A stretch of 26,340 nucleotides of DNA from a virus (taxonomy: Duplodnaviria; Caudoviricetes). The position numbers and the translations under genes are program-made. How positions within the stretch are numbered: the first letter of the stretch is position 1; every line of letters begins with the position of its first letter. The DNA is taken from positions 1-26,340 of the IMG/VR virus record IMGVR_UViG_3300032247_000046. One strand, given 5' to 3'. The notes under the pieces were generated by a model that was given only the letters and a program-made list of their open reading frames with translations, made no database searches and was not told where the DNA came from. Positions 72 through 22,400 of this stretch are shown piece by piece.

Positions 72-542
72 ATGAATAAAAAACCCTATGAACTTCATTT
101 GATTGATGGGACTAAAAGCGAAGTGCCAAACTTGGCAGTTTTGCCAGACACCATTAAAAAAAGAATCCCTGTAGCAGAGTGGATTGATAATCCTGATATT
201 TGGGACAAGAAAACTTTTATCAAAGAAACTGCAGAATTTTTACATGAAGTTTATGGAATTGGAAGCGACCAAGACAAAACAACTCTGGCTATGTTGGCAG
301 ACCAATTAGACACTTACATTCAATCTTACAAACTATTAGCCACAGATAATTTAGTGGTGGAAACAAACAATGGAAAGACACTAGCACCAAATCCATTAAT
401 AAGCATTAAGAACAATGCCTTAAAACTTTCTATTCAATTAATGAATGAGTTAGGATTAACTCCTAAAAGCAGATTAGCATCAAACAAGACAGAAGATAAT
501 TCTCCAGTTGCTCAATTTCTGAAAGGTGCTTTTGCACAATGA
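72..542 (+). CDS. terS: Terminase small subunit (P27-like family)
   Basis: 156 aa; C-terminal 'NPLISIKNNALKLSIQLMNELGLTPKSR' matches the P27-family NP...ELGLTP.SR motif; ATGA overlap with terL. Confidence 0.9.
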   Translation: MNKKPYELHLIDGTKSEVPNLAVLPDTIKKRIPVAEWIDNPDIWDKKTFIKETAEFLHEVYGIGSDQDKTTLAMLADQLDTYIQSYKLLATDNLVVETNNGKTLAPNPLISIKNNALKLSIQLMNELGLTPKSRLASNKTEDNSPVAQFLKGAFAQ

Positions 543-2203
543 AATGGGAAGATGGGATTATTTATGCCCAACAAGTTTGTAAGGGTGAAATAAATGTTTG
601 TCGTAATGTTACCTTGGCTTGTCAAAGATTTATCAATCAATTAGAAAATCAAGAATGGGAATGGCAATTTGACCATAGAGTACCTCAGCATATTTTAAGT
701 TTTGCATCTGCTTTAAAACATACCAAGGGTATGCAAGCAGGACAACCCATAGTATTAGAACCTTTCCAAATATTTTTCTTATGTGCTATTTATGGCTTTA
801 GACATAAGAAAGATAAGACCAAAAGAATGGTTACAGATGTAATACTTTATATTCCTAGAAAAGCAGGTAAATCTACACTTACTGCAATTATTGCTTTGTA
901 TGAATTACTTTGTGGAGAAGCAGGAGCAGAAGTATTTACTTTGGCTACTAATAGAGAACAGGCTACTATTGTATTTGATGCCAGTAAAGGATTTATAGAA
1001 TCCATGCCACAAGAGTTGGCTCAGTTGTTTCATGTAAGCAAATATCATATTGGCAAAGTTGGAGATAGCCAGACAATGTTTAAAGCATTGTCCAGAGATA
1101 CTAAAAAAACAGGTGATGGTAAAAATCCTTCATGTGTGATTATTGATGAAGCAAGCCAGATTATTGATAGAAATTCTATAGAGGTCTTACATTCTGGAAT
1201 GGTAGCCAGAAAGAATCCATTAAGAATTTATATTACTACTGCATCATTTTCTAAAGATACAAAATATTATGAAGATATGAGTATGCTTGAAAATATGCTT
1301 ACTGGTGAAGCAACTGATAATCCTAAATGGTTTGGTCTATTATATGGACTTGACCCACAAGATGATTGGAGAAATCCAGAGGTCTGGGCAAAGGCTAATC
1401 CCATGCATGGCATATCAGTATTTCAGGATGCTATTGCTCAAAGAGCAGAAGAAGCCAAACATAAACCTGCAACTCTTAATGAATTTCTTTGCAAGACCCT
1501 TAATATATTTGTTTCTAGTAATAGTGCTTGGATTGATAGAGAACCTTGGGATAAATCTATCATAGTAGAAAATAATAGAGAACCTGAATCTGTTTATATA
1601 GGTTTTGATTTGGCTTCAACAAGGGATTTAAATGCAGTATGTACTTTAAAAAGATTTGATGAAGATGATTATGAAGTTGAGTTTAAATTTTTCTTGCCAG
1701 AAGCAGGTTATGAATTAATTCCTAAACATTATCAAGATATATTTAGAAATGCTATTAATTCTGGTATTTTAAAATTAACTGAAGGTAATGTGATGGATGA
1801 TAGAGAAATATCACAATATATATTTCAACAATGGGAAAAATATCCTAATATAAAAGAAGTTGGATATGATGCATATAATGCCAGTAGTCTAGTAGCCAGA
1901 TTGCATGATGGTGGTTTACCTGTAAAAAAAGTAGGGCAAGGTATGGCAATATTATCTAATCCATCTAAATATGTAGAAAAATTAATACTTAATCAACAGA
2001 TTAAACATGATGGAAATCCATTCTTGGGATGGCAATTAGGTAATTGTGAATGTTATGAAGATGTCAATGGCAATATTAAAATTAGAAAGAATGAAGCAGA
2101 TAAATCTGCAAAAGTTGATGGAATTATATCTATGATAATAGCCATGCATTGCAGTTTAGATAATCCATCTATATCAAATAGTTTTGGTTTTAGAAGTTTT
2201 TGA
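539..2203 (+). CDS. terL: Terminase large subunit (Terminase_1 type)
   Basis: 554 aa; LEPFQ adenine-binding motif, Walker A IPRKAGKST, Walker B VIIDE, ITTA motif III, nuclease GFDLASTRDL and KVDG. Confidence 0.97.
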   Translation: MKWEDGIIYAQQVCKGEINVCRNVTLACQRFINQLENQEWEWQFDHRVPQHILSFASALKHTKGMQAGQPIVLEPFQIFFLCAIYGFRHKKDKTKRMVTDVILYIPRKAGKSTLTAIIALYELLCGEAGAEVFTLATNREQATIVFDASKGFIESMPQELAQLFHVSKYHIGKVGDSQTMFKALSRDTKKTGDGKNPSCVIIDEASQIIDRNSIEVLHSGMVARKNPLRIYITTASFSKDTKYYEDMSMLENMLTGEATDNPKWFGLLYGLDPQDDWRNPEVWAKANPMHGISVFQDAIAQRAEEAKHKPATLNEFLCKTLNIFVSSNSAWIDREPWDKSIIVENNREPESVYIGFDLASTRDLNAVCTLKRFDEDDYEVEFKFFLPEAGYELIPKHYQDIFRNAINSGILKLTEGNVMDDREISQYIFQQWEKYPNIKEVGYDAYNASSLVARLHDGGLPVKKVGQGMAILSNPSKYVEKLILNQQIKHDGNPFLGWQLGNCECYEDVNGNIKIRKNEADKSAKVDGIISMIIAMHCSLDNPSISNSFGFRSF

Positions 2204-2234
2204 TGTAAAATTAATTAACTTCTAGGAGAAAATC

Positions 2235-3632
2235 ATGGGAATATTAGACATTTTCAGTAAGAATAAAACAACAAAAAATGAATCTAATTCTTTATTTGGT
2301 CAGCAACAATTAGGAAACCAAGTTGCACTTCAAGGTAATAAAGGTTCTTTTGTTGGCAATAATCAACTTTTATATGTAACTACTGCAAGTGAAACACAAG
2401 CAGGTAGAACAGTTAATGTATCTGTACTATCACAAAACTCTACAGTTATGACCTGTGTAGCAATTAAAGCCAGAGCATTAGCACAATGTAGTGTAAATGT
2501 TATGTATAAAACAGAGGATGGAACTTTTGTTGATGCTTTAAAATCTGATAAAGCAGGAATGAGAGATAAAAATAAAGCCAGACAAGTTTTATCTTTATTG
2601 CAAAATCCAAATAATTTTCAAAGCCAATATGAATTTTTTTATCAGTTATCACAATGGTTAGATTTAACTGGTGAAACTTATACATTGCTTTGGAGAAAAG
2701 ACCAGACTAATCCTAGTTTGACACCAATAGAAGCATACAATTTAGATAGCACTTTAATCACTTCTCAATTAACTCCATTAAGATACCCTTCCTATAGACT
2801 AAGTACCAGTAGTTATGGCTTTAATGAAAATCAACCATTAGAACCATTTCAAGTAATTCATTTAATGGATATGTCATGGCAAGGTTCTGCAGGTTTTAAC
2901 AAAGGTATATTGGCTACAGAATTAGTAGCATTAGACCAAGATATAGATTTATATGCCAACTTTGTTATGCAAAATGGTGCTAAACCATCTGGATTATTTA
3001 GAACAGACCAAGTAATTCCTGATGCTAAATATAAAGAAGTAGCAGGAAGGTTAAAAGAAGCATGGGCAAATATGACTAATAGCAGACCTTCTGATTTGTC
3101 TAAAGCAGGTCAAGGTATGTTATTAGACCAAGGTATGACTTATGAAACAGTACCTATTTTAAATCTACAAGATGCTGATTGTGCCAAATTAAAAGAACAA
3201 ACAATTAATAGAATTTGTGCTTTATTTGGTGTGCCACCACAAATGTTAGGATTAACTGCAGGAAAATTTAATAATACTCAAACATTATTAGATGAATTTT
3301 ATAAAACAACTATGTATCCTACTATTATAAATATTGAACAAAAACTTAATATGAGTTTATTAAAGGGCTATCCTAATTTATGTATTCGATTTGATACAAA
3401 AGATTTTTTAAAAGGTGCTTCTTTAGACCAAATGAATTTTGTAGTAGCAGGTATTAATGCAGGAATTATGACACCTAATGAAGCAAGAGTTTATTTAAAT
3501 ATACCTAAAATAGAAGGTGGTGATGAATTAGGTGGTAAGTTGGCAGATTCACAAGCAGTAGGGGGAACTAGTCCACAAGATACTGGTGGTGGTGGTGGAA
3601 ATCAAACTAGGAAAATGAATATTGGAAAATAG
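2235..3632 (+). CDS. Portal protein, HK97 family
   Basis: 465 aa; LLQNPNNFQS, NGAKPSG, ICALFGVPPQMLG, GIMTPNEAR motifs; RBS AGGAG ~2224; follows terL. Confidence 0.95.
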   Translation: MGILDIFSKNKTTKNESNSLFGQQQLGNQVALQGNKGSFVGNNQLLYVTTASETQAGRTVNVSVLSQNSTVMTCVAIKARALAQCSVNVMYKTEDGTFVDALKSDKAGMRDKNKARQVLSLLQNPNNFQSQYEFFYQLSQWLDLTGETYTLLWRKDQTNPSLTPIEAYNLDSTLITSQLTPLRYPSYRLSTSSYGFNENQPLEPFQVIHLMDMSWQGSAGFNKGILATELVALDQDIDLYANFVMQNGAKPSGLFRTDQVIPDAKYKEVAGRLKEAWANMTNSRPSDLSKAGQGMLLDQGMTYETVPILNLQDADCAKLKEQTINRICALFGVPPQMLGLTAGKFNNTQTLLDEFYKTTMYPTIINIEQKLNMSLLKGYPNLCIRFDTKDFLKGASLDQMNFVVAGINAGIMTPNEARVYLNIPKIEGGDELGGKLADSQAVGGTSPQDTGGGGGNQTRKMNIGK

Positions 3633-3789
3633 TTTATTAAAAAAAATAAATGATGTATTATTTAACCAAATAAAAAAAGTTAGTGTTAAACTACCTTTGA
3701 AAGAAGAAAATACCCCTATAATACAAGATAACAATCAAGCGATTAATAATGGGGTTATAAATGAAACAAAACCTAAATCTAATTTGTGA
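3622..3789 (+). CDS. Possible 55-aa hypothetical ORF spanning the portal-protease gap (TTG start)
   Basis: Open frame LENSLLKKINDVLFNQIKKVSVKLPLKEENTPIIQDNNQAINNGVINETKPKSNL* read manually; overlaps both neighbours; no obvious RBS. Confidence 0.3.
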   Translation: MENSLLKKINDVLFNQIKKVSVKLPLKEENTPIIQDNNQAINNGVINETKPKSNL

Positions 3790-4555
3790 AGCAGAAATTA
3801 CCCTTGGCAAAATGATGGATGAAAATCAATCTCCATCTGGATTAATAGAAGCCAAAGTAACAACTTTTGGAAAAAGAATTGGTGCAGATGGTCGCAAATT
3901 CTTTTACAAGCCAGAAGGTTTTGCTCAATGGGCAGATGAATTTTCTACATCTGGAAAACCCTTACCAATGTTTCTAAATCATAATGATATGGGGATGCCA
4001 GTTGGTCAATGGGATGAATTTATGATGGAAAATGATGGAATGAGTGCCAAAGGTAGGATTTACATGAATACTGTAGGTGGCTCTGATTTATATTCAATTC
4101 TAAAAGAATCTCCAAAAATGTTTGGTGGAGTTTCTGTAGGTGCTTATGCAGATGAAGCGTGTATGGTAGATGAAAATGGTATGCCTACAGATGATGAAGA
4201 AGAAGGTTATTTTCAAATTACTAAAGGTGGATTGCGTGAAGTATCTGTAGTTATGTATCCAAATAATCCTAATGCTGAAATTCAAAAACTAGAATATTTT
4301 GATGAGGATGGCAAAGCCAATCCTAGAATAATTGAGAGAACTTTGCGTGATGCAGGGCTATCAAAAAAAGATGCAACCACAGCATCTTCAATTCTTAAAA
4401 AAGTTTTGGAATTGCGTGATGTAAAACCAGAATTAATTAAGAAAGACCCAGAACATTGTGAAAATGATGCTGTGGTAAAAACTGAAGCCCAAGATATTCT
4501 TAAAGCCCTAGAGGAAAGAGAATTATTAAAGGCATTATCTAAACGCATCAAATAA
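3761..4555 (+). CDS. Prohead maturation protease (HK97 gp4 / peptidase S78-like)
   Basis: 264 aa; PMFLNHN (catalytic His), GVSVG (catalytic Ser), LREVSVVMYPNNPNA; C-terminal 'ERTLRDAGLSKKDA' extension. Confidence 0.93.
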   Translation: MKQNLNLICEAEITLGKMMDENQSPSGLIEAKVTTFGKRIGADGRKFFYKPEGFAQWADEFSTSGKPLPMFLNHNDMGMPVGQWDEFMMENDGMSAKGRIYMNTVGGSDLYSILKESPKMFGGVSVGAYADEACMVDENGMPTDDEEEGYFQITKGGLREVSVVMYPNNPNAEIQKLEYFDEDGKANPRIIERTLRDAGLSKKDATTASSILKKVLELRDVKPELIKKDPEHCENDAVVKTEAQDILKALEERELLKALSKRIK

Positions 4556-4567
4556 GGAGTATTAAAA

Positions 4568-5917
4568 ATGAAAGAAGTTATTGAAAAATTAGATACGATT
4601 GAAGCCCAACAAGTTGCTAAAATCGAAGAAATGAAAGCAGAAGTTGCTATTACTGTGGAATCTGTTAAAGCAGAATTTGCAGAAAAAGTAGAAGCATTAG
4701 AAGCAAAATTAGCATCTGTTCAAGCACCTGCAACTATTAAAACTTATAAATCTTTATCACAAGAAGTTAATCGTAATGTTAAAGAACAGTTGAAAAACTT
4801 TTATAAGTCTGATGCTCGTACAGAAAAAGAAATTAAATTGTTTGAATCTGATGACCAATATTCAGCATATATGCAAGAAACTGGTTCACAGTTGGGTAAT
4901 CCTGCAGGTTATGGTTCTGGTTACAATGTTGGTGGTCGTACAGGATATGACCCTGTATTTGTAGCATTGCGTCAAACTAATCCTTTGCGTGGTGTTTCTC
5001 GTACAGTTTCTACAGATGGTTCTGCATATCAACTAAGACAAAAAGTTGGAAATGCAGGTGCTCAATGGTGTTATGCAATTCAAAATAATGGTGCTCCAAC
5101 AACTCAAGACACTTTAATTTGGCAGTTAATTTTGCGTGATTTAAATTGTGCTTTTCCTGTTAGAACTGCAACATTAGATGATATTGATGGTTTGGAAAGC
5201 AACATTGTTCAAGATATGATGGCAGAATTTTCACAAGTTGAAGGTTTAGCCATGATTCGCAACAATGACCAAAGCAACTCTGCTCCTTATGATGCTACTG
5301 GTGGTACTAATGGTATTCGTGGATTAAATCAATATGGTTATGCAAGCACTTATGCAGGTGGTACTGTTCATCCAGTAGTATATGGTTCAACTGGTGTAGC
5401 AACTACTGATGGTCTTTCACAAATTGCAACTTATGACCAAATTACTACTAATGGTAATGATACTGCAGTAAATAATGTAACTTATCAAGATATTATTAAT
5501 TTGATTTATAGTTTGCCTACACAATACTGGAATCCATCAACTGCTTTCTTAGTAAGTCCAATTCAACTTCAAGCAATTCGAGGTTTAAGAGATGACCAAC
5601 AAAGACCTATTTATGTTGATGGTTTGGCTAGACCTGATGGTATTATTGGACAATTATTAGGATTTGATGTAGTTGTTAATCAATTCTGTGATACACCTAA
5701 TTATGCAGGTCAAAATAAAGCAAACTTATATCCAATGTATTTTGGTGATTGGAATAGGGGTCATGTGATTATTGATAGGTTAAATATGATTTTGCGTAGA
5801 TATGAACAAACACAAGTTGGTTTTATAACTTTCTATGGTGAAAAGCGTCTAGCATCATCTATCCATGATGCAAATGCTATTGTTGCATATCGTAGTACAC
5901 ATACTGCTAATACCTAA
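4568..5917 (+). CDS. Major capsid protein, HK97 fold, with N-terminal coiled-coil scaffold (delta) domain
   Basis: 449 aa; ~100-aa E/K/A-rich N-terminus; 'IRGLRDDQQRPIY', 'GQLLGFDVVVN', 'FGDW', 'VGFITFYGEKR' motifs; strong RBS AAGGAG at 4554. Confidence 0.93.
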   Translation: MKEVIEKLDTIEAQQVAKIEEMKAEVAITVESVKAEFAEKVEALEAKLASVQAPATIKTYKSLSQEVNRNVKEQLKNFYKSDARTEKEIKLFESDDQYSAYMQETGSQLGNPAGYGSGYNVGGRTGYDPVFVALRQTNPLRGVSRTVSTDGSAYQLRQKVGNAGAQWCYAIQNNGAPTTQDTLIWQLILRDLNCAFPVRTATLDDIDGLESNIVQDMMAEFSQVEGLAMIRNNDQSNSAPYDATGGTNGIRGLNQYGYASTYAGGTVHPVVYGSTGVATTDGLSQIATYDQITTNGNDTAVNNVTYQDIINLIYSLPTQYWNPSTAFLVSPIQLQAIRGLRDDQQRPIYVDGLARPDGIIGQLLGFDVVVNQFCDTPNYAGQNKANLYPMYFGDWNRGHVIIDRLNMILRRYEQTQVGFITFYGEKRLASSIHDANAIVAYRSTHTANT

Positions 5918-5950
5918 AAGGGATGGGAGAGAAATCTCCCACCTTTTTTT
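5918..5950 (+). terminator. Rho-independent terminator between the two capsid genes
   Basis: Stem TGGGAGA-GAAA-TCTCCCA (5924-5941), extendable by GG/CC, followed by T7. Confidence 0.85.
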
Positions 5951-5973
5951 AAACTTATTTGGAATAAATATAT

Positions 5974-7215
5974 ATGGCAAACTTAATTCTTGAAGCAGTA
6001 AAACAAGCCATTAAAGATGGCGAAGCAACAGTAAATTTAAAAGAAGCAAGTGCCCTTACTGGCTCTGGTTCTGGAATAGGTGGTCGTATAATTTATGATG
6101 ATGCTTTTGCATCATTAAGGATGCTTAATCCTATTCGTGCTTTATCAAGACAAATTACTACTATAGGTTCAGATGAAGCCTTTGTAGCAAAAACAGGTAA
6201 CATTACTAATATTCAAAATGGTGCAGTTGTAACTGGTTCTATTACAGGTACAACTTTAACTGTAACTGCAGTAACAAGTGGAACTTTACGAGTTGGACAA
6301 ACTTTATCTGGAACAGGAATTAATGCAGGTACTTATATTAGTGCATTAGGTACTGGAACAGGTGGTACTGGTAACTATACAGTTGTAGGTGATACATCTG
6401 CATCATCTACTACTATTACTGCTAGTGGAAACCCATGGGAATATTATCCAATTAATAATAATAATGCAAATATTGGATACAATACTGCATTTTGGCAATT
6501 ACCTGTTAGAGCAATGCAAGCAGGTGTGCCCATTAGAACTGCAGTTTTATCTGATATAAATAATTTAGAACAATCTATTGTTAATGACATTGCAATGGAA
6601 TTTGCTCAACAAGAAGCATTATCTATGATGTTTAATAATGACCAAGCAGGTTCTACTACAGGTTATTATGGTGCAACTTTAGGATTGCGTGGATTAAATA
6701 GTTATCCTAATTCTACTTCTAGTGCTTCTTTTGGTTCAAGTGGTAATGCAATTACTAATGGATTACATACAGTTTTAGCAGTACAAGCAGAATCTTCTTC
6801 AGCAATTTCTTATAATGATATTGCTAATCTTGCAGGTGCTTTACCTGCTCAATATTGGTGTACTCCTACTACTGCATGGATGATGCATCCAACAACTATT
6901 AAAAATCTTAGAGAATTAACTGGTGGTGCAACTGGTTTACCAGTATTTTTAGAAGTTGGTGATGTTGATGGTGGTTCTGTTACTAGAATTTTTGGATTTC
7001 CAGTAATTCCTAATCCATATATGAGTGTGGCAGGTTCAGGAAATTATCCAATATATTTGGCTTCTTGGGATAATTTTGTAACTATAGCAGATAATGAATT
7101 AATGAAAATTCAAATGTTTGAACAAACTGCAGTTGGTTATGTAACAATTTTTGCTGAAAAAAGAGTTTGCTCTACCATTCGTGATGTATTTGCAGGTGTA
7201 AGATTGGTGAACTAA
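5974..7215 (+). CDS. Second HK97-fold capsid protein (paralogue), lacking the scaffold domain, with an inserted Thr/Gly-rich domain
   Basis: 413 aa; aligns by eye with 4568-5917 (GGR..YD..F..LR..NP.R..SR; P.RTA.L.DI..LE..IV.D...EF.Q.E...M..NNDQ; G.RGLN.Y; VG..T...EKR). Confidence 0.88.
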
Positions 7216-7217
7216 TA

Positions 7218-7886
7218 ATGCCAGTTAATAATCTTGCTACAGGAACTTATCTAGGTGCAACTGGTAATCCTTGGAGTTATCAAAAAGTTGAGCAGATTGA
7301 TAGAGATATTGAAACTCAATGGCTTACTTTAGAGGAAATTACTCAGCAATTAAATTTAATTGATGATGAATCACAAGATACATATCTAAGTAGCCTTGAA
7401 TTAGCCACTAGGATGGCTATTGAAGATTATTTGGGTATGTCTATATTGCCTGTACAGTATCGTGTTTACTATGGTGCTTCTAATCAATCTATGGGGATGC
7501 AAACATCTTTAGATTTGCCAGAAGTATCACAAGATACAAATAGTACATTAGGAGTAACTATTAATACTCTAAAATATTATAATAATGACCAATTACCAAC
7601 ATTAATAACTATTGATGATACTCAATATTTTTATGACCCTACAGGAAATAAAGTAGTCATTAATACATTGCCAAATGATATTAATACAATTATGACTAGT
7701 CCAGTTGTATTAACTTATTCATTAAATTCTAATCCCATAGGTGCTTATCCTGTGATTAAACAAGCAGGATTATTACTATTAACTCATTTATACAATAATA
7801 GAAGTGATACTATTGAAGGAAGATTAAACAACATTCCTTTTGGAGTATCTCAATTACTCAGACCATATAAACCTTTGGTGATGTAA
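7218..7886 (+). CDS. Head-tail connector (HK97 gp6 / SPP1 gp15-like)
   Basis: 222 aa; 'LTLEEITQQLNL.DDE.QD.YL..L..A....IEDYLG' and 'IKQAGLLLLTHLYNNR...IPFGVSQLLRPYK'. Confidence 0.88.
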   Translation: MPVNNLATGTYLGATGNPWSYQKVEQIDRDIETQWLTLEEITQQLNLIDDESQDTYLSSLELATRMAIEDYLGMSILPVQYRVYYGASNQSMGMQTSLDLPEVSQDTNSTLGVTINTLKYYNNDQLPTLITIDDTQYFYDPTGNKVVINTLPNDINTIMTSPVVLTYSLNSNPIGAYPVIKQAGLLLLTHLYNNRSDTIEGRLNNIPFGVSQLLRPYKPLVM

Positions 7887-8231
7887 ATGTCTATTACAAG
7901 ATATGAAAATATAGATATTAATAATGTAACTAATAGCAAAAATTCTATTGGTGAACAAACAACCACTATTACAAAATGGTTTACTACTAGAGCATTAGTA
8001 AAAACCCCAAAAAATAGTTTAACTATTACTAATGGCACAAGGATATATTCAGATATTTTAGAATTAACTTTAAACTATACTGCTAATACTAAACAAATAT
8101 TTGAACAACAAAATCTATACTCAATTACTTATAAAGGTGTGAATTGGAGAATTGAGAATGTTCAAGAAACTAATGATAGGATGAAAGTGATATTTTCATG
8201 TTATCGTAATGACCCTACTGTACCTGTATGA
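7887..8231 (+). CDS. Head closure / head-tail adaptor (SPP1 gp16-like)
   Basis: 114 aa; size, synteny and 'ITYKGVNWRIENV' pattern. Confidence 0.75.
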   Translation: MSITRYENIDINNVTNSKNSIGEQTTTITKWFTTRALVKTPKNSLTITNGTRIYSDILELTLNYTANTKQIFEQQNLYSITYKGVNWRIENVQETNDRMKVIFSCYRNDPTVPV

Positions 8232-8650: not shown

Positions 8651-8689
8651 GATAATATTTATTAACTTTTATTTTAAGGAATTTTAAAA

Positions 8690-9211: not shown

Positions 9212-9215
9212 TAAT

Positions 9216-10454: not shown

Positions 10455-10789
10455 TAGGGTCTGTTCGTAGACAAGTTAAAGCCTATTTGACTGCTCATGG
10501 GACAGACCCTAATGCCATAGATGAACAAACTTTTACTGATATTTGCATTATGTTTAATGATGGAATTATTGGTAATTTAGGCATACTACAAGTATTAGGA
10601 TTATTGACTGCAGGACAATTTAATAAGGTCTTGCCAACTGGCAAGCCACCATTTAAACTACAAGATATAATTCCAAATGCTTATGATTATTTATATCCAC
10701 CATTAACAGATGAACAGAAAAAGGAGCAGGTTAATAAAAATTTATTAGCCTTTGCAATGATGAATCCAGAAAAACCCAAGGTGAAATAA
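10451..10789 (+). CDS. Tail assembly chaperone C-terminal extension (gpT analogue; ~274-aa fusion by frameshift)
   Basis: Frame open from the slippery site; the annotated TTG at 10487 has no clear RBS; stop overlaps the tape measure ATG. Confidence 0.75.
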   Translation: MIGSVRRQVKAYLTAHGTDPNAIDEQTFTDICIMFNDGIIGNLGILQVLGLLTAGQFNKVLPTGKPPFKLQDIIPNAYDYLYPPLTDEQKKEQVNKNLLAFAMMNPEKPKVK

Positions 10790-12750
10790 TGGCACAAAAT
10801 GTAGCAAGACTAGGTGTTATCTTTGGGATGGATTCTGCTGAATTCGAAACTGGATTAAAAAAAATAGGTAAAGGTCTTGATTCTATTCAAGACAAAATGA
10901 AAATTGCAGGAGCAGTAGCAGTAGCATCATTTACTGCAATGACATATAAAGCCCTAGAATACTCTGATAGAATTTCTGATGTAGCCCAAGCCAATGAAGT
11001 AGCAGTTAAAACTGTGATGGCACTTTCTGAAGGGTTAGCCCAAAATGGTGGTGATGCTGAAAATGCAGGTAAATTACTTGCTAGTTTTACTGCAAAAATA
11101 GATGAAGCATCTCAAGGCAGTAAAGATGCTCAACAAACTTTTGCTAGATTAGGAATATCTTTACAAGATTTAGGCACTAAAGATATGACATCTTTATTTG
11201 ACCAAGCAATCACAAGTTTGGCAGGAATGGATGATGCAGTATCCAGAAATGCAGTTGCTATGAGTATTTTTGGTAAATCTGCTAAAGGTGTTGATTTTGT
11301 AGGTTTAGCAGATGGTGCTATTCATGCAAGAGAAGAATTTGAAGCCTATGCAGAAGCAGTTAAAAAAGCAGGTGATTTACATGATAAGTTAGATGCTAAA
11401 GCAACCAAAACTATGGTCATGTTTACTAATGCTTTTATTCCAACTTTGAATGAAGTTTTTAATGCTCTTAATAAAACTGGTGGAGCAATGGAATCTTTCT
11501 TTAATTTTACAGGAGAAGGATTTAAAAATATTGTAGTAGGTATTGCAGGAGCAGTATCTTATGTAAAAATTTTTGGAATGTCTTTAGTAGCATTAAATAA
11601 ATTACTTTACGATTTTGAACAAGGTAGAGGTTTTAATTTTGAAGAAAGATGGAAAAATTTAGTTAATGATGCAAATGTAGAAATGGGTAAAACCAAAGAA
11701 TTTGCAAATAGAATTTTTTATCCAGAAGTATATGCTCCAAAAGAAGTTAAACCAGAAGAATTTAAAGGTAGACAAGTTACTCCTTATAAAGATACTCAAG
11801 CCATTAATGAAGCCAAAAAAATCAAAGAAGGTTTAGAAATGGCTAAACAGTTGTCTATTGAATACAAAAGACAATTAGATTATTCATATCAGGTTTTAGT
11901 TGCAAAAGGTCAGATGAATTATATGTCTGATAAAGAAAGAACAATAGCAGAAGCAGTTGCATCTGTTACTGATGAAACAAATAAAAAATTAACAGAAATA
12001 CAAAACAAAAAAGAAGAAGCATTAGCCCATGGAGTTGATAAAAAAGTTTTAGATGAAATGGAAAAACAAAAAGAAAAAATAATAGAACTTGGTAAAACTT
12101 ATGAAAATTTAACCAGAATAGAAATAACTTCTCAACAAGAGGCTCAAAGAACTTTTGCTTTTGGATGGAATAAAGCATTTAGACAATCTGCAGAAGATGC
12201 AGAAAATTTTGCAACATTAGGAACAAAAGCATTTGAAACAATGTCTGGAAATATTACTAGTGCTATAGATAATTTTGTAGAAACTGGCAAATTAAGTATG
12301 ACAGATTTTGCAACATCTATTATTAAAGAATTAATAAAAATAGAATTAAAAATGCAAGCAATGGCATTATTTAGAATGGGTATATCTTTTTTTAGTGGTG
12401 CTTTTGCTTCTTCTGCTCCACAAGAATTAGACCCTCAAGCCTATGCAAATCATCCTCTTTTAAATTTACCTGCTAAAGCAGGGGGTGGTGATATTTCTGC
12501 AAATCAACCTTATTTAGTTGGTGAAAAAGGTGCAGAATTAATTATTCCACAAAGAAATGGAACAGTAGTACCAAATAATAGGCTTTCTGATGTAATGGGT
12601 TCTGGTCAAACTATTAATTACAATGCTCCATATATTGCTAATATGTCAGCAATAGATACACAATCAGCAACTCAATTTTTGGCTCAGAATAAACAAACAA
12701 TCTGGGCAGTTAATCAATCAGCATCTAGGTCTATGCCTACTTCGAGGTAA
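10789..12750 (+). CDS. Tail tape measure protein (lambda gpH-like C-terminus)
   Basis: 653 aa, helical, Ala/Lys/Glu-rich; 'IDNFVETGKLSMTDFATSII' and 'AGGG...PYLVGEKGAELIIP'. Confidence 0.92.
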   Translation: MAQNVARLGVIFGMDSAEFETGLKKIGKGLDSIQDKMKIAGAVAVASFTAMTYKALEYSDRISDVAQANEVAVKTVMALSEGLAQNGGDAENAGKLLASFTAKIDEASQGSKDAQQTFARLGISLQDLGTKDMTSLFDQAITSLAGMDDAVSRNAVAMSIFGKSAKGVDFVGLADGAIHAREEFEAYAEAVKKAGDLHDKLDAKATKTMVMFTNAFIPTLNEVFNALNKTGGAMESFFNFTGEGFKNIVVGIAGAVSYVKIFGMSLVALNKLLYDFEQGRGFNFEERWKNLVNDANVEMGKTKEFANRIFYPEVYAPKEVKPEEFKGRQVTPYKDTQAINEAKKIKEGLEMAKQLSIEYKRQLDYSYQVLVAKGQMNYMSDKERTIAEAVASVTDETNKKLTEIQNKKEEALAHGVDKKVLDEMEKQKEKIIELGKTYENLTRIEITSQQEAQRTFAFGWNKAFRQSAEDAENFATLGTKAFETMSGNITSAIDNFVETGKLSMTDFATSIIKELIKIELKMQAMALFRMGISFFSGAFASSAPQELDPQAYANHPLLNLPAKAGGGDISANQPYLVGEKGAELIIPQRNGTVVPNNRLSDVMGSGQTINYNAPYIANMSAIDTQSATQFLAQNKQTIWAVNQSASRSMPTSR

Positions 12751-13442: not shown

Positions 13443-14032
13443 ATGAAATTATACCTGTTCAAAATACTAATAATATTAGAATTGCTGATTTTATTAGAAT
13501 AATAACACCAGATGCAACTTACAGATTTGCTACTACTGCGACTGCATTAACTATTCCTGCTATTGATTCGCAACCATTTACGGCATTAAGTCAATTAGTA
13601 AAAATTGGAGATGCAGTTAGAGATATTAAATCAACTGCTAATGAAACAACTGTTACATTTGTAGGTTTAGATACTGCTTTTTTAGGATGGGTATTAGGAC
13701 AAAATATAAAAGGTTCACAGATACAAATGTGGCATGGATTTTTTAATACAGAAGGTGCATTAATTACTACTGGTGGTTCTGGTGGACTATATCAATTTTT
13801 TAATGGTTATATAAATTCTTATTCCATATCAGAACAATGGATGGAAGAAATTAGAAGTTATGTTGGTAGTGTTTCTATTTCTGCTTCATCTATTCAATTA
13901 ATATTACAAAATAGAACTGCAGGTAGATATACTAATAATAATTCATGGACATTTTTTAATCCTACAGATACCAGTATGAACAGAGTATCATTTATTACAA
14001 ACATTAATTATCAATTTGGTAAAACTGCATGA
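13439..14032 (+). CDS. Putative baseplate hub / minor tail protein
   Basis: 197 aa; synteny; 'GRYTN...FNPTDTSMNRV' C-terminus resembles siphophage hub proteins. Confidence 0.5.
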   Translation: MNEIIPVQNTNNIRIADFIRIITPDATYRFATTATALTIPAIDSQPFTALSQLVKIGDAVRDIKSTANETTVTFVGLDTAFLGWVLGQNIKGSQIQMWHGFFNTEGALITTGGSGGLYQFFNGYINSYSISEQWMEEIRSYVGSVSISASSIQLILQNRTAGRYTNNNSWTFFNPTDTSMNRVSFITNINYQFGKTA

Positions 14033-14472
14033 TAAGAGAAGCAACAAAATATGATAAAAATCAAATAATAGATTTAATTAGATTAATAAGAAATGAAAGT
14101 GAAATACAAGAATTTCAGTTTGAAAATGAAACACAATGGAATATTTTATTAGATACTATATTAGCAGGAGCAGGTGTAATTTATGTTGATGATAAAAATA
14201 AAGTTATTACTGGTTTAATTATGGGATTAATAACACCTAGTATTTGGTGCAATAATAGTTTAATACTACATGAAGTTATGTGGTTTGTTAAAAAAGAATA
14301 TAGAAATTTAACAATAGGATATAGATTATTTAATGCTTATATTAAATATGGAAAAAAGTTAAAAAATGAAAAAAGAATCAAATATTTTGTAATTGGTAAA
14401 TTGCCTACAAGTCCAAATATAAAATATGAAAAATATGGATTTAAAAAAACAGATGAAAGTTATATTCAATAA
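14029..14472 (+). CDS. GNAT-fold (acetyltransferase-like) protein in the tail operon
   Basis: 147 aa; 'MIREATKYD' start, 'WFVKKEYRNLTIGYRLF' motif-A-like, 'YEKYGFKK' motif-B-like. Confidence 0.7.
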   Translation: MIREATKYDKNQIIDLIRLIRNESEIQEFQFENETQWNILLDTILAGAGVIYVDDKNKVITGLIMGLITPSIWCNNSLILHEVMWFVKKEYRNLTIGYRLFNAYIKYGKKLKNEKRIKYFVIGKLPTSPNIKYEKYGFKKTDESYIQ

Positions 14473-17400: not shown

Positions 17401-17837
17401 CTTCATTTACTAGAAATACTGTTAGTTTAACAAATCAATCTATTTATACTGCTTCAGGATTTACTATTAATGATGGGCATGAGTTATTATTTTTAAATGG
17501 AACTGTAGTTAATGCACAAGATTACACTTTAAATGGACAAGAAATTGTATTTATTGGTGCAACAACTGGCAATTTAGAAGTTATACAATGGGCTAATTCA
17601 AATTTAGGTTTACCAGTTGGATTGCCTGTTAATGTGGATATTTATACCAATGTTGGACAAACAACATATCCATTTCAATTTAATCCAAATGCATTTAATA
17701 TATATCAAAATGGTGTAATGTTATTACAAGGAACAGATTTTACAACAGGCACAGGTACTTATACATTAGCAAATTCACCAACAACAAATTTAAATATTTT
17801 AGTACAACAAACATTTACTAGAACAGGAGCAGTATGA
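14472..17837 (+). CDS. Tail tip / host-specificity protein (lambda gpJ-like central fibre)
   Basis: 1121 aa; 'LPVIYG', 'YDYLINTRYGGAI', 'GLQLDAGDVVTVT', FN3-like region, C-terminal beta repeats. Confidence 0.8.
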   Translation: MRKFYKSLLIAIMLLPTMAFAFGTMIAVGIIGLTAGSFTALAVGFAINMVVSAVISKALFNPSQPSYEGAGSSPNLGNRQQIAPATDNKLPVIYGSSYVGGQVTDLSISENNQELYYVLSLCEVTGTESIQTRSTFTFGKIYWGGKLVTFQSNGYTVASLTDESTGVVDTTVNGLLEFYLYSNGSYSPSNSPYTAIEVMSNPDLIYQWNNTKLMSDCVFAIVHLTYNQPANITGLQQTKFQVNNSLKQTGAVIYDYLINTRYGGAIPQNQIDTVSLNALTTYSEEVITYILYSGGISTQKRFEFNGLIETNRNIMQNLQDMASCCDCLIKYSEMFGLWGVIVQSPTYTVALALNDSNIISGITTTPLDIANSFNIAEVKFPDNTAQDAFNTSIYDLAEIDPALLYPNEPVNKQSISLPLTNNSVTAQLLANRFLKSAREDLQISLSINYIGLQLDAGDVVTVTNTNYGWNNKLFRCQKVTQTFSDSGQITANLSLSEFNPTVYDDVSITQFTPAPNTGIGNPTFFGVPPAPTISGQQPTITNPSFQVNITSSPAGITQYAEVWYSAFNNPTADQRIFAGTTEIQSNGNPYSINTSMPPVTLANIPSGNWYFFSRMVNSLASSIFSPPSALFQWRPSTFQYINRYLAVAYGTSLTGAGFSFSPTNKTYYGLANINSTSAPTSASDYTWYPANPNFGTISFLLYSNRTGRKFSFATGQANYASGSASFVPTQISTYDPSIWLGLPNGTNIIDLDVRTGQVIQTGTTTVGTGQIGITNNPDGTIVAGLQEYLDFGGAYIKTVNLASITIDIYGRVVGFEPPDNFYYTRQSFIATSGQTVFNVTRSSGYISGQCLVFSNGLIYNTDQYTDTGGSTGIVTLNVGAVAGDIITIISVKSVSATSILTTASSGDGTIATLSFTPKTFAPFTVGQSITITDLNPAGYNGTYTVLTCTTSQVTYLNSTTGSQIASGTITFTNPVYTSFTRNTVSLTNQSIYTASGFTINDGHELLFLNGTVVNAQDYTLNGQEIVFIGATTGNLEVIQWANSNLGLPVGLPVNVDIYTNVGQTTYPFQFNPNAFNIYQNGVMLLQGTDFTTGTGTYTLANSPTTNLNILVQQTFTRTGAV

Positions 17838-18439
17838 CACAAGCATTTAATTTATCGCAGTTTGCTAATAATGTTAATTCATCAGGGCAAGCATCTAATG
17901 GTGGATTACAAAATTCATCTGTTACTGTAACTGCAGGCACAGGAATGTCAGGGGGTGGTGCAGTAGCATTAGGCTCATCTGTAACTCTAAACAATGCAGG
18001 AGTAACTTCTGTAACTGCAGGAACAGGTATTAGTGTATCTGCATCAACTGGTGGAGTAACTATTTCTTCTACTGGAACTGGAGTAACTTCTATTACTGCA
18101 GGTAATGGTATATCAGTTAATACTAATACTGGTGCAGTTACAGTTACTAATTCATTGTATTCACCAACTGGAAATGGTGTAGGAACTTATGTACTTGGTC
18201 AATTTAATAGACAAGGCAATACTTATATACCTTCTTTTGGTAGTAATTATTCAGTTGGTTCTGGTGGAAATCAAGTTACTGTATTGACATTATATGATAT
18301 TAATGAAGGGGGTAATTATACTGCTTTGGCTAATTGGGGAGCAGGCTATTATTCTGGTAGCATATCTGGAACTTGGAAATGGTTAGGTAATGATGCAGGC
18401 ACTAATTATTCTGGTGCATTAATGGTAAGAATTGCTTAA
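17834..18439 (+). CDS. Short tail fibre / receptor-binding protein
   Basis: 201 aa; three repeats of S[VI]T(VT)AG[TN]G[MI]S...G.VT; C-terminal 'GVGTY...SGTWKWLG...MVRIA' fibre-tip-like domain. Confidence 0.65.
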   Translation: MTQAFNLSQFANNVNSSGQASNGGLQNSSVTVTAGTGMSGGGAVALGSSVTLNNAGVTSVTAGTGISVSASTGGVTISSTGTGVTSITAGNGISVNTNTGAVTVTNSLYSPTGNGVGTYVLGQFNRQGNTYIPSFGSNYSVGSGGNQVTVLTLYDINEGGNYTALANWGAGYYSGSISGTWKWLGNDAGTNYSGALMVRIA

Positions 18440-18449
18440 AAGGAAATAT

Positions 18450-18665
18450 ATGTTGACTATTGAATATGCTAAAAACCCTATTTGGAATAATGCTGACCAT
18501 AATGCTATTTTTTTAATAGTAAAATTTGTAGAAATGGCAGATGAACTTCCTTTTACTGCAACACCTTTTGATGTTGAATCTTATGGTATAGAATTATACA
18601 ATAATGCATTTGCAGGATATTATGGTGAAATAGCATCTTATGTACCACCACCACCTATAGAATAA
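18450..18665 (+). CDS. Putative tail fibre assembly protein (71 aa)
   Basis: ATG 18450 with RBS AGGA at 18441; 'NPIW...ELPFTATPFDVESYG.ELY..A..G.YGEIA' resembles fibre-associated chaperones. Confidence 0.6.
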   Translation: MLTIEYAKNPIWNNADHNAIFLIVKFVEMADELPFTATPFDVESYGIELYNNAFAGYYGEIASYVPPPPIE

Positions 18666-18666
18666 T

Positions 18667-18834
18667 ATGAAATATCGTATATATCCTAATTCAACTCCTG
18701 AATTTAAAATGATTCAAAAAGAAGATGGAACTATGCAAATGATGATTAGGTATATTAATACTTTTGTTGGCTATACTGGTAAATGGATGCCTATGCTAGT
18801 AGAAAAAGAAAATGTTGCAGAAAGTAAATACTAA
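18667..18834 (+). CDS. Small hypothetical protein (55 aa), not in the ORF track
   Basis: MKYRIYPNSTPEFKMIQKEDGTMQMMIRYINTFVGYTGKWMPMLVEKENVAESKY*; starts 1 nt after the upstream stop. Confidence 0.65.
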   Translation: MKYRIYPNSTPEFKMIQKEDGTMQMMIRYINTFVGYTGKWMPMLVEKENVAESKY

Positions 18835-18842
18835 GGTAAAAT
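18815..18842 (+). promoter_or_regulatory. Possible sigma70-like promoter TTGCAG-N16-TAAAAT
   Basis: Partial consensus match leading into one of the few intergenic gaps. Confidence 0.35.
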
Positions 18843-18860
18843 ATTTAAAATAATATAAAA

Positions 18861-18917
18861 CATGATTCGTGGGCTTGTAAGGGTATAAGCCTATTAACTA
18901 AGGACAGAGAAATCATG
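18861..18917 (+). promoter_or_regulatory. Candidate structured 5' leader RNA sequestering the start codon
   Basis: CATGATT (18861-67) pairs with AATCATG (18911-17, includes the ATG); inner hairpin GGGCTTGTA-AGGG-TATAAGCCT (18871-92). Confidence 0.5.
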
Positions 18918-19403
18918 GCTATCTTCAACAAAAATAGTCTTACTCAAGTTTCTGGGTTTGACAATCCAATTATTGCAGGGGAACTAGTATGGGAACAAAG
19001 TACATACTGGAATCTTTCAATTACTGCAAATGACAATGTAACTCCAATAAATCTTACTGATGCAACAATAGATGCTCATATTATTAGGCGAGCAATGTCC
19101 AATATTCAAGATACTAGGAATGGATTAACTTTTGATATTGCTAATTACACACCTACACCAACTCCAATAGCATTAAGTATTGTTAATAGAAATGATGCTA
19201 CAGGCTTTTTTACTTTAGTTATTAATGATTCTGCATGGGATTTGATGAATGATGACCCTGAACTAGATATTAATGCACAAGATTGCGTGGGCTTTTCAGG
19301 AAGAATAAAAATTAGTTTTGCTCCTAGTGGAGCAACTCCACAAAATGATTATATTATTTTCTTGTTATTCCTTGTTCGTTCTGATGGCATAGTGGTGGAA
19401 TAA
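18915..19403 (+). CDS. Putative fibre-anchoring / BppU-N-like structural protein
   Basis: 162 aa; 'PINLTDATIDAHI', 'DATGFFTLVI' resemble BppU N-terminal-like domains; directly upstream of the long fibre. Confidence 0.5.
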   Translation: MAIFNKNSLTQVSGFDNPIIAGELVWEQSTYWNLSITANDNVTPINLTDATIDAHIIRRAMSNIQDTRNGLTFDIANYTPTPTPIALSIVNRNDATGFFTLVINDSAWDLMNDDPELDINAQDCVGFSGRIKISFAPSGATPQNDYIIFLLFLVRSDGIVVE

Positions 19404-19405
19404 TT

Positions 19406-22400
19406 ATGGGAAATATGAATGTAACAGTTATAGACCAGAACAATGTAAAGATTGCAGTAACTCCTACACCTACTCAAACAATTAATATTGATAGAGGAAT
19501 TATTGGAGTATCAGGATTATCTGGGTATTCAGGCTATTCTGGAATTAGTGGTTTTTCTGGCTATAGTGGAGAAAGTGGATATTCTGGTTTATCAGGCTTT
19601 AGTGGAATTTCTGGATATTCTGGAGAATCTGGAATAAGTGGATTTTCTGGATATTCTGGCACATCTGGATTTTCTGGATATTCTGGGACATCTGGCATTA
19701 GTGGTGATTCAGGCATTTCTGGTTTTAGTGGTGATTCAGGTATATCTGGTTTTAGTGGATTTAGTGGAACTATTGGATTTAGTGGATATTCTGGTATAAG
19801 TGGATATTCTGGAACTTCTGGTTATAGTGGTAATTTAGGAATAAGTGGCTATTCTGGCATAAGTGGTTATTCAGGTTATTCTGGAATTAGTGGATTTAGT
19901 GGATATTCTGGTTCTGGTATTAGTGGTTATTCTGGAAGTGGTATTTCTGGATATAGTGGTTATAGTGGCATAAGTGGATTTAGTGGAATTTCTGGAATAT
20001 CTGGAACTAGTGGATATTCTGGTATATCTGGATTTTCAGGATATTCTGGAATTAGTGGTTATTCTGGAACTAGTGGTTTTTCTGGTATATCAGGATATTC
20101 TGGTTCTGGTATTTCTGGATATTCTGGTAGTGGGATTTCTGGATATTCTGGCTACTCTGGCACAAGTGGATTTAGTGGTTATAGTGGTATCTCTGGTTTC
20201 TCTGGAATAAGTGGCTTTAGTGGAATTTCTGGATTTAGTGGAGTATCTGGATTCTCAGGTGTACAAGGTTCATCATCAAGTTTATTTTTATATCAAGCAC
20301 AAACAACTGCAACAAGTGGTCAGCCTACTAATGGGCATATTATTTGGAATAATGCAACTCAAATTAATGCAACTCAAATTAATATTAGTCATTTAACTAT
20401 TGATGTTACTGATATTGATGTATTTTTAGCATTGTTGCAACCAACAGAAACTTTTATTTTACAAGATAGAAATGTAAGTGCAAATTATCAAACTTGGTTA
20501 ATAACAGGTAATACAACAAATATAAATCCAAATACTGCTAATAGTTATTGGACAATACCAGTTAGCCTTATTGCATCAGGTGGAACAGGAACTTCTAATT
20601 TTGCTAATAATCATGAATTATTTTTTGCAATAACAAAAGGTATAAGTGGTACATCTGGTTATAGTGGTTATTCTGGATTTTCAGGAATAGGAACAAGTGG
20701 TTATAGTGGTTATTCTGGTACATCTGGATTTTCTGGAATAAGTGGTTATAGTGGCACAAGTGGTTTTAGTGGAATTTCTGGTTATAGTGGTTCTGGAGTA
20801 AGTGGTTTTTCTGGATATAGTGGAAGTGGTATAAGTGGCTTTTCTGGTTATTCAGGAAGTGGAATATCAGGCTTTAGTGGCTACTCTGGAACAAATGGTA
20901 TCAATGGTACATCAGGTTTTTCTGGATATTCTGGAAGTGGAATAAGTGGATTCTCAGGCTATTCTGGATTAAATGGAGCAACTGGCACAAGTGGATTTAG
21001 TGGTTACTCTGGAACAAATGGTTCTACTGGAGTTAGTGGATTTTCTGGCTATTCTGGTGTAAATGGTTCAACTGGAACATCTGGATTTAGTGGTTATAGT
21101 GGAATCAATGGTGCAACAGGTACATCTGGTTTTTCTGGCTATTCAGGAATTGGAACATCAGGTTATTCTGGCTATTCAGGAATTGGTATTTCTGGACTAA
21201 CAAGTGGTCGAGTACCTTATGCAACTACAGGTGGATTATTAACTGATAGTGCCAACATGACGTTTAACGGCACTACGCTGACTTTAGCCAATGACGCATC
21301 TATATCAGGTCTTACTGTTGGTAAAGGTGCAGGAAGCGTTGCAAGTAATACGGCAGTGGGTGTTAGTGCTTTAGGTGTTAATACAACAGGCAATAGTAAT
21401 GACGCATTTGGTTCTTTGGCTTTGCAAGCAAATACAACAGGTATTGGAAATGATGCTTTTGGTAGAGGCACTTTATATACAAATACAACTGGAAATTATA
21501 ATGCAGGTTTTGGATATAATGCTTTATTTACAAATAATGGGACAGCCAATACGGCAGTAGGTACTTCTGCACTTCAAGCAAACACTACAGCATCTAACAA
21601 CACCGCAATAGGCTATCAAGCACTTTACTCAAACACTACTGGTGGCACTAATGTAGCCATTGGCAATCAAGCACTTTATACAGGTAATGTGGATAACACA
21701 ATTGCTATCGGAAATCAAGCGTTAAAATTACTTACTTCAGGTACAAACAACACAGCTATTGGAGTAATAGCATTAGCAAAAACAACAACTGGTACAGACA
21801 ATACAGCAACTGGGTTTTTTGCTAGTTATCAAAACATTACAGGTTCTTATAATTCTTCCTATGGGTCTGGTGCTTTACAAAATACCACAGCATCTAATAA
21901 CACCGCAGTAGGATATCAGGCTGGGTATTCTCAAGTTACCGCAAATAACAATTCTTTTGCTGGATATAAAGCTGGTTATGCTACTACTTCTAGTGACAAT
22001 GCTGCATTTGGTTCTGTTGCTTTAACTAACAACACTTCAGGAGCTAACAATGCTGCATTTGGTCGTTCAGCATTAGAAAGTAATACTACTGGTAGTTTTA
22101 ACACCGCAGTAGGTAAAGATGCACTTGTATTAAACACCACATTCTCAAATAACACAGCAGTAGGTTATCAAGCACTTTATTCCAACACTCAAAACCAAAA
22201 TTCTGCGGTTGGTTATCAGGCAATGTATTCAAATACCACAGGCTATTACAATGTGGCTATGGGTGAACAAGCTTTATATGCTAATACATCAGGCACTCAA
22301 AATACTGCGTATGGTATGAACGCATTAAGGTCAAACACCACAGCATCTAATAACACAGCCGTAGGATATCAAGCAGGGTATAGCAATACTACAGCATCGT

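Follow-up and report, generated by a model that had tools for sequence, protein, structure and literature searches.

Loss of Ala-Ala, Pro-Gly and Gly-Pro from the backbone proteins of a P19250A-like siphophage, with evidence for avoidance of many short DNA words

Introduction

The proteins encoded by most of a 26,340-nucleotide stretch of phage DNA (the whole of the sequence analysed, here called the window) lack the dipeptides Ala-Ala (AA), Pro-Gly (PG) and Gly-Pro (GP), and about 18 short DNA words, mostly palindromes, are at zero across most of the sequenced genome. It is likely that the genome backbone was purged of these words through prolonged selection by numerous Type II restriction-modification systems spread over different strains of the host. 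The basic strategy of restriction-site avoidance has long been known, and this phage is likely to be an extreme case of the known escape from host restriction enzymes. In the survey that documents total loss of sites as a feature of non-temperate dsDNA phages, short Type II-type sites, mostly palindromes, disappear from both strands, as they do here (PMC6286503). The survey counts DNA words only (the terms 'amino acid', 'codon' and 'nonsynonymous' are absent from it) and reports that GCNGC is usually not avoided, whereas in the window some 18 words have been lost jointly and the protein is altered at conserved sites. A literature search that was thin on older and subscription papers found none describing how avoidance of sites can cost a phage its dipeptides, so that absence from print is not implied.

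The phage and its gene map

Terminase similarity and a collinear structural module identify the window as the left-hand portion of the genome of a P19250A-like siphophage, and probably around 12 kb of this phage's genome is missing from the record. All features lie on the + strand. The purged backbone (positions 72 to 21250), which is without AA, PG, GP and Trp-Pro, encodes the terminase large subunit (539 to 2203), the portal (2235 to 3632), a protease, the major capsid protein (PHROG 10; 4568 to 5917), a second capsid-type gene (5974 to 7215), connectors, the tape measure protein (10789 to 12750), tail genes and the proximal tail fibre. In the tail fibre ORF of 1,415 aa (19406 to 23653) a purged N-terminal half of SG(Y/F) repeats runs on, in frame, into a distal half that is unpurged. 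The unpurged segment (21260 to 23776) takes in the distal fibre and most of the ORF at 23654-23977, and is followed by a purged right flank (23880 to 26340) with two ORFs named, by eye only, as glycosyltransferase-like (24196-25416 and 25409 to the end).

No terminase relative above 91% identity was found in IMG/VR and no capsid relative above 64% identity in metagenomes, in collections from which the very closest records may have been left out. The cultured Methylophilaceae phage P19250A (KX815270) has a terminase 71% identical to that of the window, a collinear head-tail module and an SG(Y/F)-repeat fibre. It too lacks GGCC (0 against 35 expected) and ACGT (0 against 19) but, unlike the window, retains GCNGC (89 against 87 expected), CCWGG and GGWCC, and its proteins contain 54 AA, 21 PG and 17 GP.

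Missing dipeptides and missing DNA words

AA, PG and GP each occur 0 times in the 7,837 residues of the 29 ORF segments outside 21,250-23,653, bearing out the original observation that there are none outside about 21.25-23.9 kb. Codon-order shuffles gave in-frame expectations of 41.6, 22.1 and 22.4 respectively, and the lowest totals among 300 shuffles were 25, 14 and 14. A comparison of all 400 dipeptides, proposed with that observation, showed these three to be the most depleted. The control pairs AG (57 observed, 43.6 expected), GA (44, 43.6), PA (18, 20.2) and AP (14, 20.2) are present. GG was observed 45 times against 84.6 expected, a figure that the SGY repeat has probably pushed up. The spaced controls A-x-A (57), P-x-G (23) and G-x-P (27) all occur, and the tape measure protein contains 81 Ala with zero AA. 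A fourth banned pair, Trp-Pro (0 against 3.6 expected), always contains GGCC and so cannot be encoded once GGCC is lost. The three absences originally listed were thus correct, but Trp-Pro and about 15 further absent words had been overlooked.

The 5-mers that underlie the three dipeptides, GCNGC, CCNGG and GGNCC, occur 8 times, once and twice in the window, always between 22,001 and 23,285. The proposed count of these motifs in the other frames gave 0 of each but has low power: in coding DNA they arise almost solely in frame, only 1.4, 3.4 and 3.2 off-frame sites were expected and some shuffles also gave 0, so that this test decides little.

Among words that are removable by silent change, and against synonymous shuffles, AGCT (0 against 64.6 expected), GATC (55.1), CCAGC (27.1), ACGT (17.5), GGCC (11.6), CCGC (11.3), GGNNCC (9.2) and CCGG (8.1) are all at zero, as are CASTG (14), CAATTG (17), CATATG (8) and CCTCC (20). 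The list of about 18 words was picked after scanning the sequence. The sites fall far below composition-aware expectation under Burge-Karlin, synonymous and codon-order nulls. Since many zero words could be removed silently, the cause acts on DNA; the zero counts of such words, the absence of the asymmetric words from both strands and the respelling seen in relatives together show an action that is at the DNA level, on both strands and independent of the protein. CCG/CGG is also nearly gone (3 in 23.7 kb). Even under a null that excludes every word on the list, CpG stands at 59 against 110 expected, so either the word list is incomplete or another force is acting.

Replacements at conserved positions

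It had been suggested that the phage accepted amino-acid changes in losing these sites, and alignment with homologues, which carry AA, PG and GP at the corresponding positions, supported this. The window keeps 0/27 family-conserved AA, PG or GP, as against 60-85% of other conserved pairs (628/1,049 and 793/928). The replacements are mostly conservative, the nearest small residue being taken (AA to AS, SA, AG or AT; PG to AG or VG). In the terminase, family AA at residues 148, 205, 359 (79/81 loci) and 448 (77/81 loci) reads AS in the window, AA at 311 reads AT, AA at 535 reads AM and GP at 64 reads GM. PG at portal residue 291 (74/76 loci) has become AG and AA at 395 has become AS. The major capsid protein has VG for PG at residue 417 (53/54 loci) and AT for AA at 201, and the second capsid-type gene VG for PG at residue 387 (40/44 loci). 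Two AA of the tape measure protein of the sister phage L001 are AS and SA in the window.

Relatives as a natural experiment

The comparison set comprised 145 related loci with graded steps of loss (146 loci counted). Lineages that lack only GCWGC keep Ala-Ala, respelled GCGGC or GCCGC, and those without any GCNGC have lost it (5/146 loci). Each of the 11 AA of L001 that could be aligned uses GCGGC or GCCGC; at these positions the window reads AS six times, SA three times, AQ and AG. In the locus L006, where GCNGC is missing and CCWGG and GGWCC are present, AA has been lost at 14/14 positions, with PG retained at 3/3 and GP at 1/1. Fibres rich in GP likewise hold to one spelling (0 GGWCC and 106 GGSCC in L119; 52 and 0 in L087). 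Across the relatives, then, dipeptides are respelled while a spelling is open and lost when all are closed.

AA and GP appear to have been lost after the split from L001, and AA to have been lost separately in L006 and in the L145 clade. The first terminase tree came from a quick search. The AU test did not reject a tree that unites the window with L001 and the L145 group (p 0.324), and the shared PG changes may therefore be inherited rather than convergent. L145 and L148, with terminases about 75% identical to that of the window, also have 15/18 words at zero.

Words open to silent removal have gone by silent changes. Where one spelling is still open (GCSGC, GGWCC or GGSCC) the relatives have kept the dipeptide in that spelling, and where all are closed it has been replaced, even at near-invariant sites of the terminase, portal and capsid.

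The unpurged tail-fibre tip

The bounds of the unpurged segment (21,260 to 23,776) were set by the first and last motif. The segment has a GC content of 0.39 and contains 8 GCNGC, 7 AGCT and 15 CCGC, with 8 AA, 1 PG and 2 GP in its proteins; it is itself poor in GCWGC, GATC and GGNNCC. This tail-fibre tip was probably acquired recently from a phage that had undergone less purging. The best match in the search for a donor was just 59% identical over the C-terminal 197 aa, the junction DNA found no exact match, and none among the contigs listed bridges the 5' junction. The persistence of several dozen sites in this one segment of the genome counts against restriction as the cause.

Candidate enzymes and hosts

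Fnu4HI and Bsp6I recognise GCNGC, and Sau96I and Eco47II recognise GGNCC. The target of LlaMI and ScrFI is CCNGG (PMC3346939). Each of these targets corresponds, in frame, to one banned dipeptide of the window, but a W-centred enzyme together with a 4-base cutter would have an identical effect: CCGC, CCGG and GGCC are also at zero, so GCWGC with CCGC, CCWGG with CCGG and GGWCC with GGCC ban the same dipeptides. The enzymes therefore cannot be named from the window; the DNA-level purge originally proposed holds, and the Fnu4HI, ScrFI and Sau96I labels attached to it are not fixed. In L145, L148, L155 and L006 all GCNGC is lost without loss of CCGC, and there the loss of GCSGC is independent of CCGC. 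The proposal that dipeptide absence could predict a host's restriction repertoire fares poorly, at most 4 pairs being bannable as against about 18 DNA words.

The host may be a streamlined Methylophilaceae or similar freshwater bacterium, judging from the one cultured relative. Assignment through GTDB was set aside: three contigs lie in MAGs labelled Holosporales, Rhodoferax and Alphaproteobacteria and are probably mis-binned phage DNA. C5 methyltransferases are present in 4/19 genomes of the candidate host genus, so a population-wide repertoire fits better than a single host. One system among these 19 genomes pairs a LlaMI-family nuclease with a neighbouring methyltransferase that has the published CCNGG target motif, on a 2.1-kb contig that could be mis-binned. 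Searches of 201 family genomes, in which no positive control matched, gave LlaMI in 1, Eco47II in 2 and Bsp6I in 0. This rarity of matching systems counts against restriction, as does the finding of no site avoidance in two candidate-host genomes (60 kb each).

Alternative explanations

Host methyltransferases might instead mark the words, with Type IIM or IV enzymes of other strains (BisI-like, GmrSD, McrBC-like) cutting the progeny. Most purged words are known m5C targets, BisI cuts methylated GCNGC, one candidate-host genome has a GmrSD domain close to a methyltransferase island, and CpG is low beyond the listed words. Against this, methyltransferases adjoin LlaMI, Bpu10I or HNH nucleases in 4/5 candidate-host clusters, and avoidance is weak for modification-dependent enzymes in the phage survey (PMC6286503). 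The two mechanisms are inseparable from sequence alone, and we regard methyl-dependent cutting as unlikely.

Rather less likely still is an unrecognised sequence-specific defence or DNA-binding system selecting against some or all words, especially CCG, CCAGC, ACAGC and CCTCC. Several asymmetric words have no enzyme assignment, CCG/CGG is almost gone, matching nucleases are scarce in candidate hosts, and avoidance of GGAGG could reflect its action as an internal ribosome-binding site; however, CCTCC is zero on the coding strand too (a count with no separate expectation for that strand), and 14/18 words have the classical Type II palindrome form. Paired C5 methyltransferases, which are typical of asymmetric sites, also occur in two candidate-host islands.

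Decay of cytosine-methylated words by C-to-T deamination, with no selection, is improbable. It would be in keeping with a CpG rho of 0.10, TpG/CpA of 1.26 and mild enrichment of some products (AGTT z 2.9, GATT z 2.2, CTGG z 3.2, GGCT z 4.5), but others are flat or depleted (ACAT z -3.1, GCGT z -3.4) and CATC, a neighbour that is not a deamination product, is more enriched (z 4.9). Just 5/27 conserved-site replacements are single C-to-T or G-to-A products, which thus do not dominate; AS, AG and VG are reached only by transversions or in more than one step, and exact zeros at conserved residues are not expected from mutation alone. Neither PF00145 nor PF01555 (C5, N6/N4 methyltransferases) was found in any of 5 relatives, of which 4 have a completeness of 90% or more. 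The replacement spectrum and uneven product enrichment largely refute this explanation.

A host ribosome or proteases that disfavour AA, PG and GP is the least credible cause since, although the absence of three 5-mers that are nearly always in frame cannot alone separate DNA from protein, many words whose removal leaves the protein unchanged are also at zero, 8 AA occur in the fibre tip of this very phage, and the respelling pattern contradicts it, relatives keeping AA at a median 0.74 of expectation by means of GCG/GCC, which account for 20% of their remaining Ala codons.

Implications

The aligned relatives show that restriction-type DNA pressure can prevail over the purifying selection that acts on core proteins of the virion, and some convergent substitutions in phage proteins may reflect DNA defence and not protein adaptation. 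The family offers a graded, testable series (respelling first, substitution when forced) that includes a cultured member with a known host, and the absent words are candidate methylome motifs for the uncultured host, including CCAGC, ACAGC and CCG, which have no assigned enzyme. More tentatively, the phage may purge the union of rare, island-borne specificities of its whole host population, and this pressure may have forced the same amino-acid changes repeatedly, in different lineages, where terminase, portal and capsid are almost invariant. If so, host DNA defence would shape the sequences of virion proteins directly and convergently, and an exchanged fibre tip would at once leave the phage vulnerable and record a recent shift in its host range.

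Loss of three dipeptides

The original prediction held that Ala-Ala (AA), Pro-Gly (PG) and Gly-Pro (GP), which cannot be encoded without GCNGC, CCNGG and GGNCC respectively, are missing outside ~21.25-23.9 kb through avoidance of restriction sites. The absence was borne out. In the 7,837 residues outside 21,250-23,653 there is no copy of any of the three, against 41.6 AA, 22.1 PG and 22.4 GP in codon-order shuffles, and near-zero was reached in 0 of 300 such shuffles. When all 400 dipeptides were compared these pairs took the first three ranks by depletion, while the control pairs AG, GA, PA and AP and the spaced A-x-A, P-x-G and G-x-P all occur. Trp-Pro, a fourth pair made unencodable by a ban on GGCC, is also absent (0 versus 3.6). 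The whole window contains 8 GCNGC, 1 CCNGG and 2 GGNCC, every copy within 22,001-23,285. A proposed count of off-frame motifs was run and was too weak to decide, because just 8 such sites were expected altogether.

Relatives of the phage

The P19250A-like relatives provide a natural experiment. The comparison covered 146 loci, the window among them, each 7 kb or longer and with no dereplication; 59 of them lack GCWGC and 5 lack GCSGC. The window, L145, L148 and L155 have no copy of any of the three 5-mers, and L006 is the one further locus without GCNGC. In the 58 GCWGC-free relatives AA stands at a median 0.74 of expectation, and 1,127 of 1,127 AA begin with GCG or GCC, which is definitional, compared with 3,245 of 15,937 other Ala codons. 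GP-rich tail fibres are likewise single-spelled, with 106 GGSCC and 0 GGWCC in L119 and 52 GGWCC and 0 GGSCC in L087. In the sister phage L001, whose terminase is 91% identical, AA occurs at 11 aligned positions, always as GCGGC or GCCGC; the window has AS at six of these, SA at three, and AQ and AG at one each. The three in-frame GP of L001 become GA, GM and GK.

A proposed check was whether homologues carry the missing pairs at aligned positions, and they do. Of 27 positions at which 50% or more of the unpurged relatives have AA, PG or GP, the window retains the pair at none (0 of 23 in a count on fewer loci), whereas other pairs are retained at 628 of 1,049 moderately conserved and 793 of 928 highly conserved sites. 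The losses include AA359 of the terminase (539..2203; present in 79 of 81 loci), PG291 of the portal (2235..3632; 74 of 76) and PG417 of the major capsid protein (4568..5917; 53 of 54). L006 has lost AA at 14 of 14 sites and retains PG and GP, in line with its CCWGG and GGWCC. At the level of sequence these comparisons show a loss acting on DNA, with respelling where possible and substitution where forced.

A quick-method tree of terminase and portal, built on the 65 rows left after dereplication of 130 and with 28 trait columns taken out, sets window plus L001, L006 and the L145 group apart from one another (SH-aLRT 96-100); grouping of the window, L001 and the L145 group was not rejected in an AU test (p 0.324). 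Independent loss of AA and GP across lineages is nevertheless likely, because L001 retains the family-consensus AA and GP and the replacements differ between lineages (AS versus SA, AS versus AG, GM versus GK). For the identical changes of PG to VG and of PG to AG, common inheritance and convergence are both possible.

A wider purge of short words

In the 23.7 kb outside an unpurged segment at 21,260-23,776, no copy was found of AGCT, GATC, GGCC, GCGC, CCGG, ACGT, CGCG, GCNGC, CCNGG, GGNCC, GGNNCC, CASTG, CAATTG, CATATG, CCGC, CCAGC, CCTCC or GTCTC, and ACAGC (2), CCG/CGG (3) and GTYRAC (1) are close to zero. TCAGC stays at 28 where ACAGC is reduced to 2 (1-21250 plus 23900-26340). Synonymous shuffles gave expectations of 65 for AGCT, 55 for GATC, 27 for CCAGC and 17.5 for ACGT, and many of the zero words could be removed without protein change. 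The list was chosen after scanning, and some words overlap or have low expectation (CGCG ~1); in an external comparison, L145 and L148 also lack 15 of the 18 words. GANTC, CATG, GTAC, TCGA and CTAG are retained. CpG rho is 0.10, and even with the listed words forbidden in the null CpG numbers 59 versus 110, around half the expected level. The purge is real and far beyond chance.

The N-centred words can be replaced by GCWGC with CCGC, CCWGG with CCGG, and GGWCC with GGCC without any change in the four forbidden dipeptides, so the enzymes cannot be named from the window. In L145, L148 and L155 GCSGC is absent, yet 34-50 CCGC are kept and CpG rho is 0.7, a pattern showing that a specificity of GCNGC or GCSGC type is at work in the P19250A-like family. 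Type II enzymes with the N-centred targets include Fnu4HI and Bsp6I (GCNGC), ScrFI and LlaMI (CCNGG), and Sau96I and Eco47II (GGNCC).

Gene content and the tail fibre

PHROG matches comprise terminase, portal, protease, two capsid-type proteins, connectors, tape measure and tail fibre. Among 2,544 matching records, terminase identity exceeds 60% for a single cultured phage, the Methylophilaceae phage P19250A (71.2%); as it is collinear with the window and 38.7 kb long, the window probably spans the left two thirds of a genome of this type. The two capsid-type genes are tandem (4568-7215) and cross-align at ~35% identity; the second (5974..7215) has an insert at aa 78-165 that matches tail-fibre-like PHROGs, and P19250A has genes at both positions as well. 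An AT-rich acetyltransferase gene lies within the tail module (14029-14472), its place being taken in L086, L087 and L096 by a different-looking 150-aa gene (GC 0.24). Two ORFs at 24196-26338, without PHROG match, are glycosyltransferase-like by eye, the first with a methyltransferase-like motif, and are conserved 3' of the fibre in many relatives.

The purged words return at 21,260-23,776, in frame within the tail fibre ORF (19406..23653, + strand) and the next small gene. Counts inside the segment nonetheless fall below expectation for GCWGC (3 versus 6.9), AGCT (7 versus 16.3), GATC (0 versus 4.4) and GGNNCC (0 versus 3.6), which points to a partly purged donor. In sequencing run X1, a possible source of the window, depth is 12.9 and 13.5 in the flanking contigs and rises to 16.4-17.1 over the segment, whose 3' end has two exits, a path at 12.6 and a variant at 5.5; this fits a segment common to the window phage and a rarer one. 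An assembly chimera is possible, because contigs break at 21,245-21,299, none of the listed contigs spans the 5' junction, another contig diverges after 21,252, and 6 bases (23,873-23,905) differ between the window and the principal right-flank contig of X1, a difference suggesting a strain mix or assembly bubble. A stretch at the segment start (21194-21330) is common to many co-occurring phages, with a summed depth of 1,470 at 21,289 in run X3, and is likely a recombination hub and assembly branch point. Sites are also concentrated in the distal fibre half of the sister phage (9, versus 1 in the other 12.5 kb of L096), and in the fibres of L099 and L087, but not in that of L095 (6 in 2.3 kb versus 26 in 9.6 kb). 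The fibre tip was probably acquired after the purge.

The proximal fibre (19406-21250) is a proline-poor SG(Y/F) repeat; the fibre genes of L112, L116 and L119 carry collagen-like GP repeats and that of L087 has both types. There may be an interplay between GGNCC avoidance and the kind of repeat, although P19250A has the SG repeat without a GGNCC purge.

Candidate hosts and the selecting agent

A RuMP marker was found in 9 of 401 genomes of the candidate-host order, two at 1.3 Mb, whose genus comprises 19 genomes of 0.8-1.4 Mb (~36% GC in two sampled) and is probably a streamlined genus of Methylophilaceae. The host would be one of these or a similar freshwater bacterium. C5 methyltransferases occur in 4 of the 19, neighboured by an LlaMI-family nuclease (one) or Bpu10I-family nucleases (two). 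Two paired sets lie near integrases, one of these sets next to an HNH nuclease; one locus also has a GmrSD domain nearby. The methyltransferase adjoining LlaMI has the motif given for CCNGG methyltransferases by PMC3346939, but it lies on a 2.1-kb contig that may be wrongly binned. Among 201 genomes of the family, LlaMI turned up in 1, Eco47II in 2 and Bsp6I in none, in searches where no positive control rang. Two candidate-host genomes showed no site avoidance over 60 kb each. These data fit systems that are rare and mobile and that select on the phage through their combined specificities, and also another host richer in restriction systems.

In the streamlined candidate genus, the defence loci L128 and L141-L144 hold paired C5 methyltransferases, Bpu10I-, LlaMI- and HNH-type nucleases, GmrSD, WYL and a PDC-S14 match, and two of them adjoin integrases. 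Phage-family contigs (L082, L083, L084) in MAGs labelled Holosporales, Rhodoferax and Alphaproteobacteria are probably mis-binned.

The selecting agent is likely to be Type II restriction spread over host strains. Methyl-dependent restriction, inseparable from it by sequence, is less probable. Decay by m5C deamination is disfavoured, as it fits just 5 of 27 replacements at conserved sites and its products are not consistently enriched. Methyltransferases of two families were not found in 5 relatives.

Restriction strength has been tied to site number (PMC8594841), and a survey reports site elimination in ~7% of phage-site pairs, the text searched giving no match for protein-level terms (PMC6286503). 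In lake microbes, GCWGC, AGCT and GATC are reported to be methylated, and a Methylopumilus bin to have motifs without methyltransferase genes (10.1101/380360). A search of largely open-access literature found no published account of dipeptide loss via site avoidance. The purge is an extreme form of an anti-restriction strategy already known, and the comparative evidence is unusually clear that it reaches conserved protein residues.
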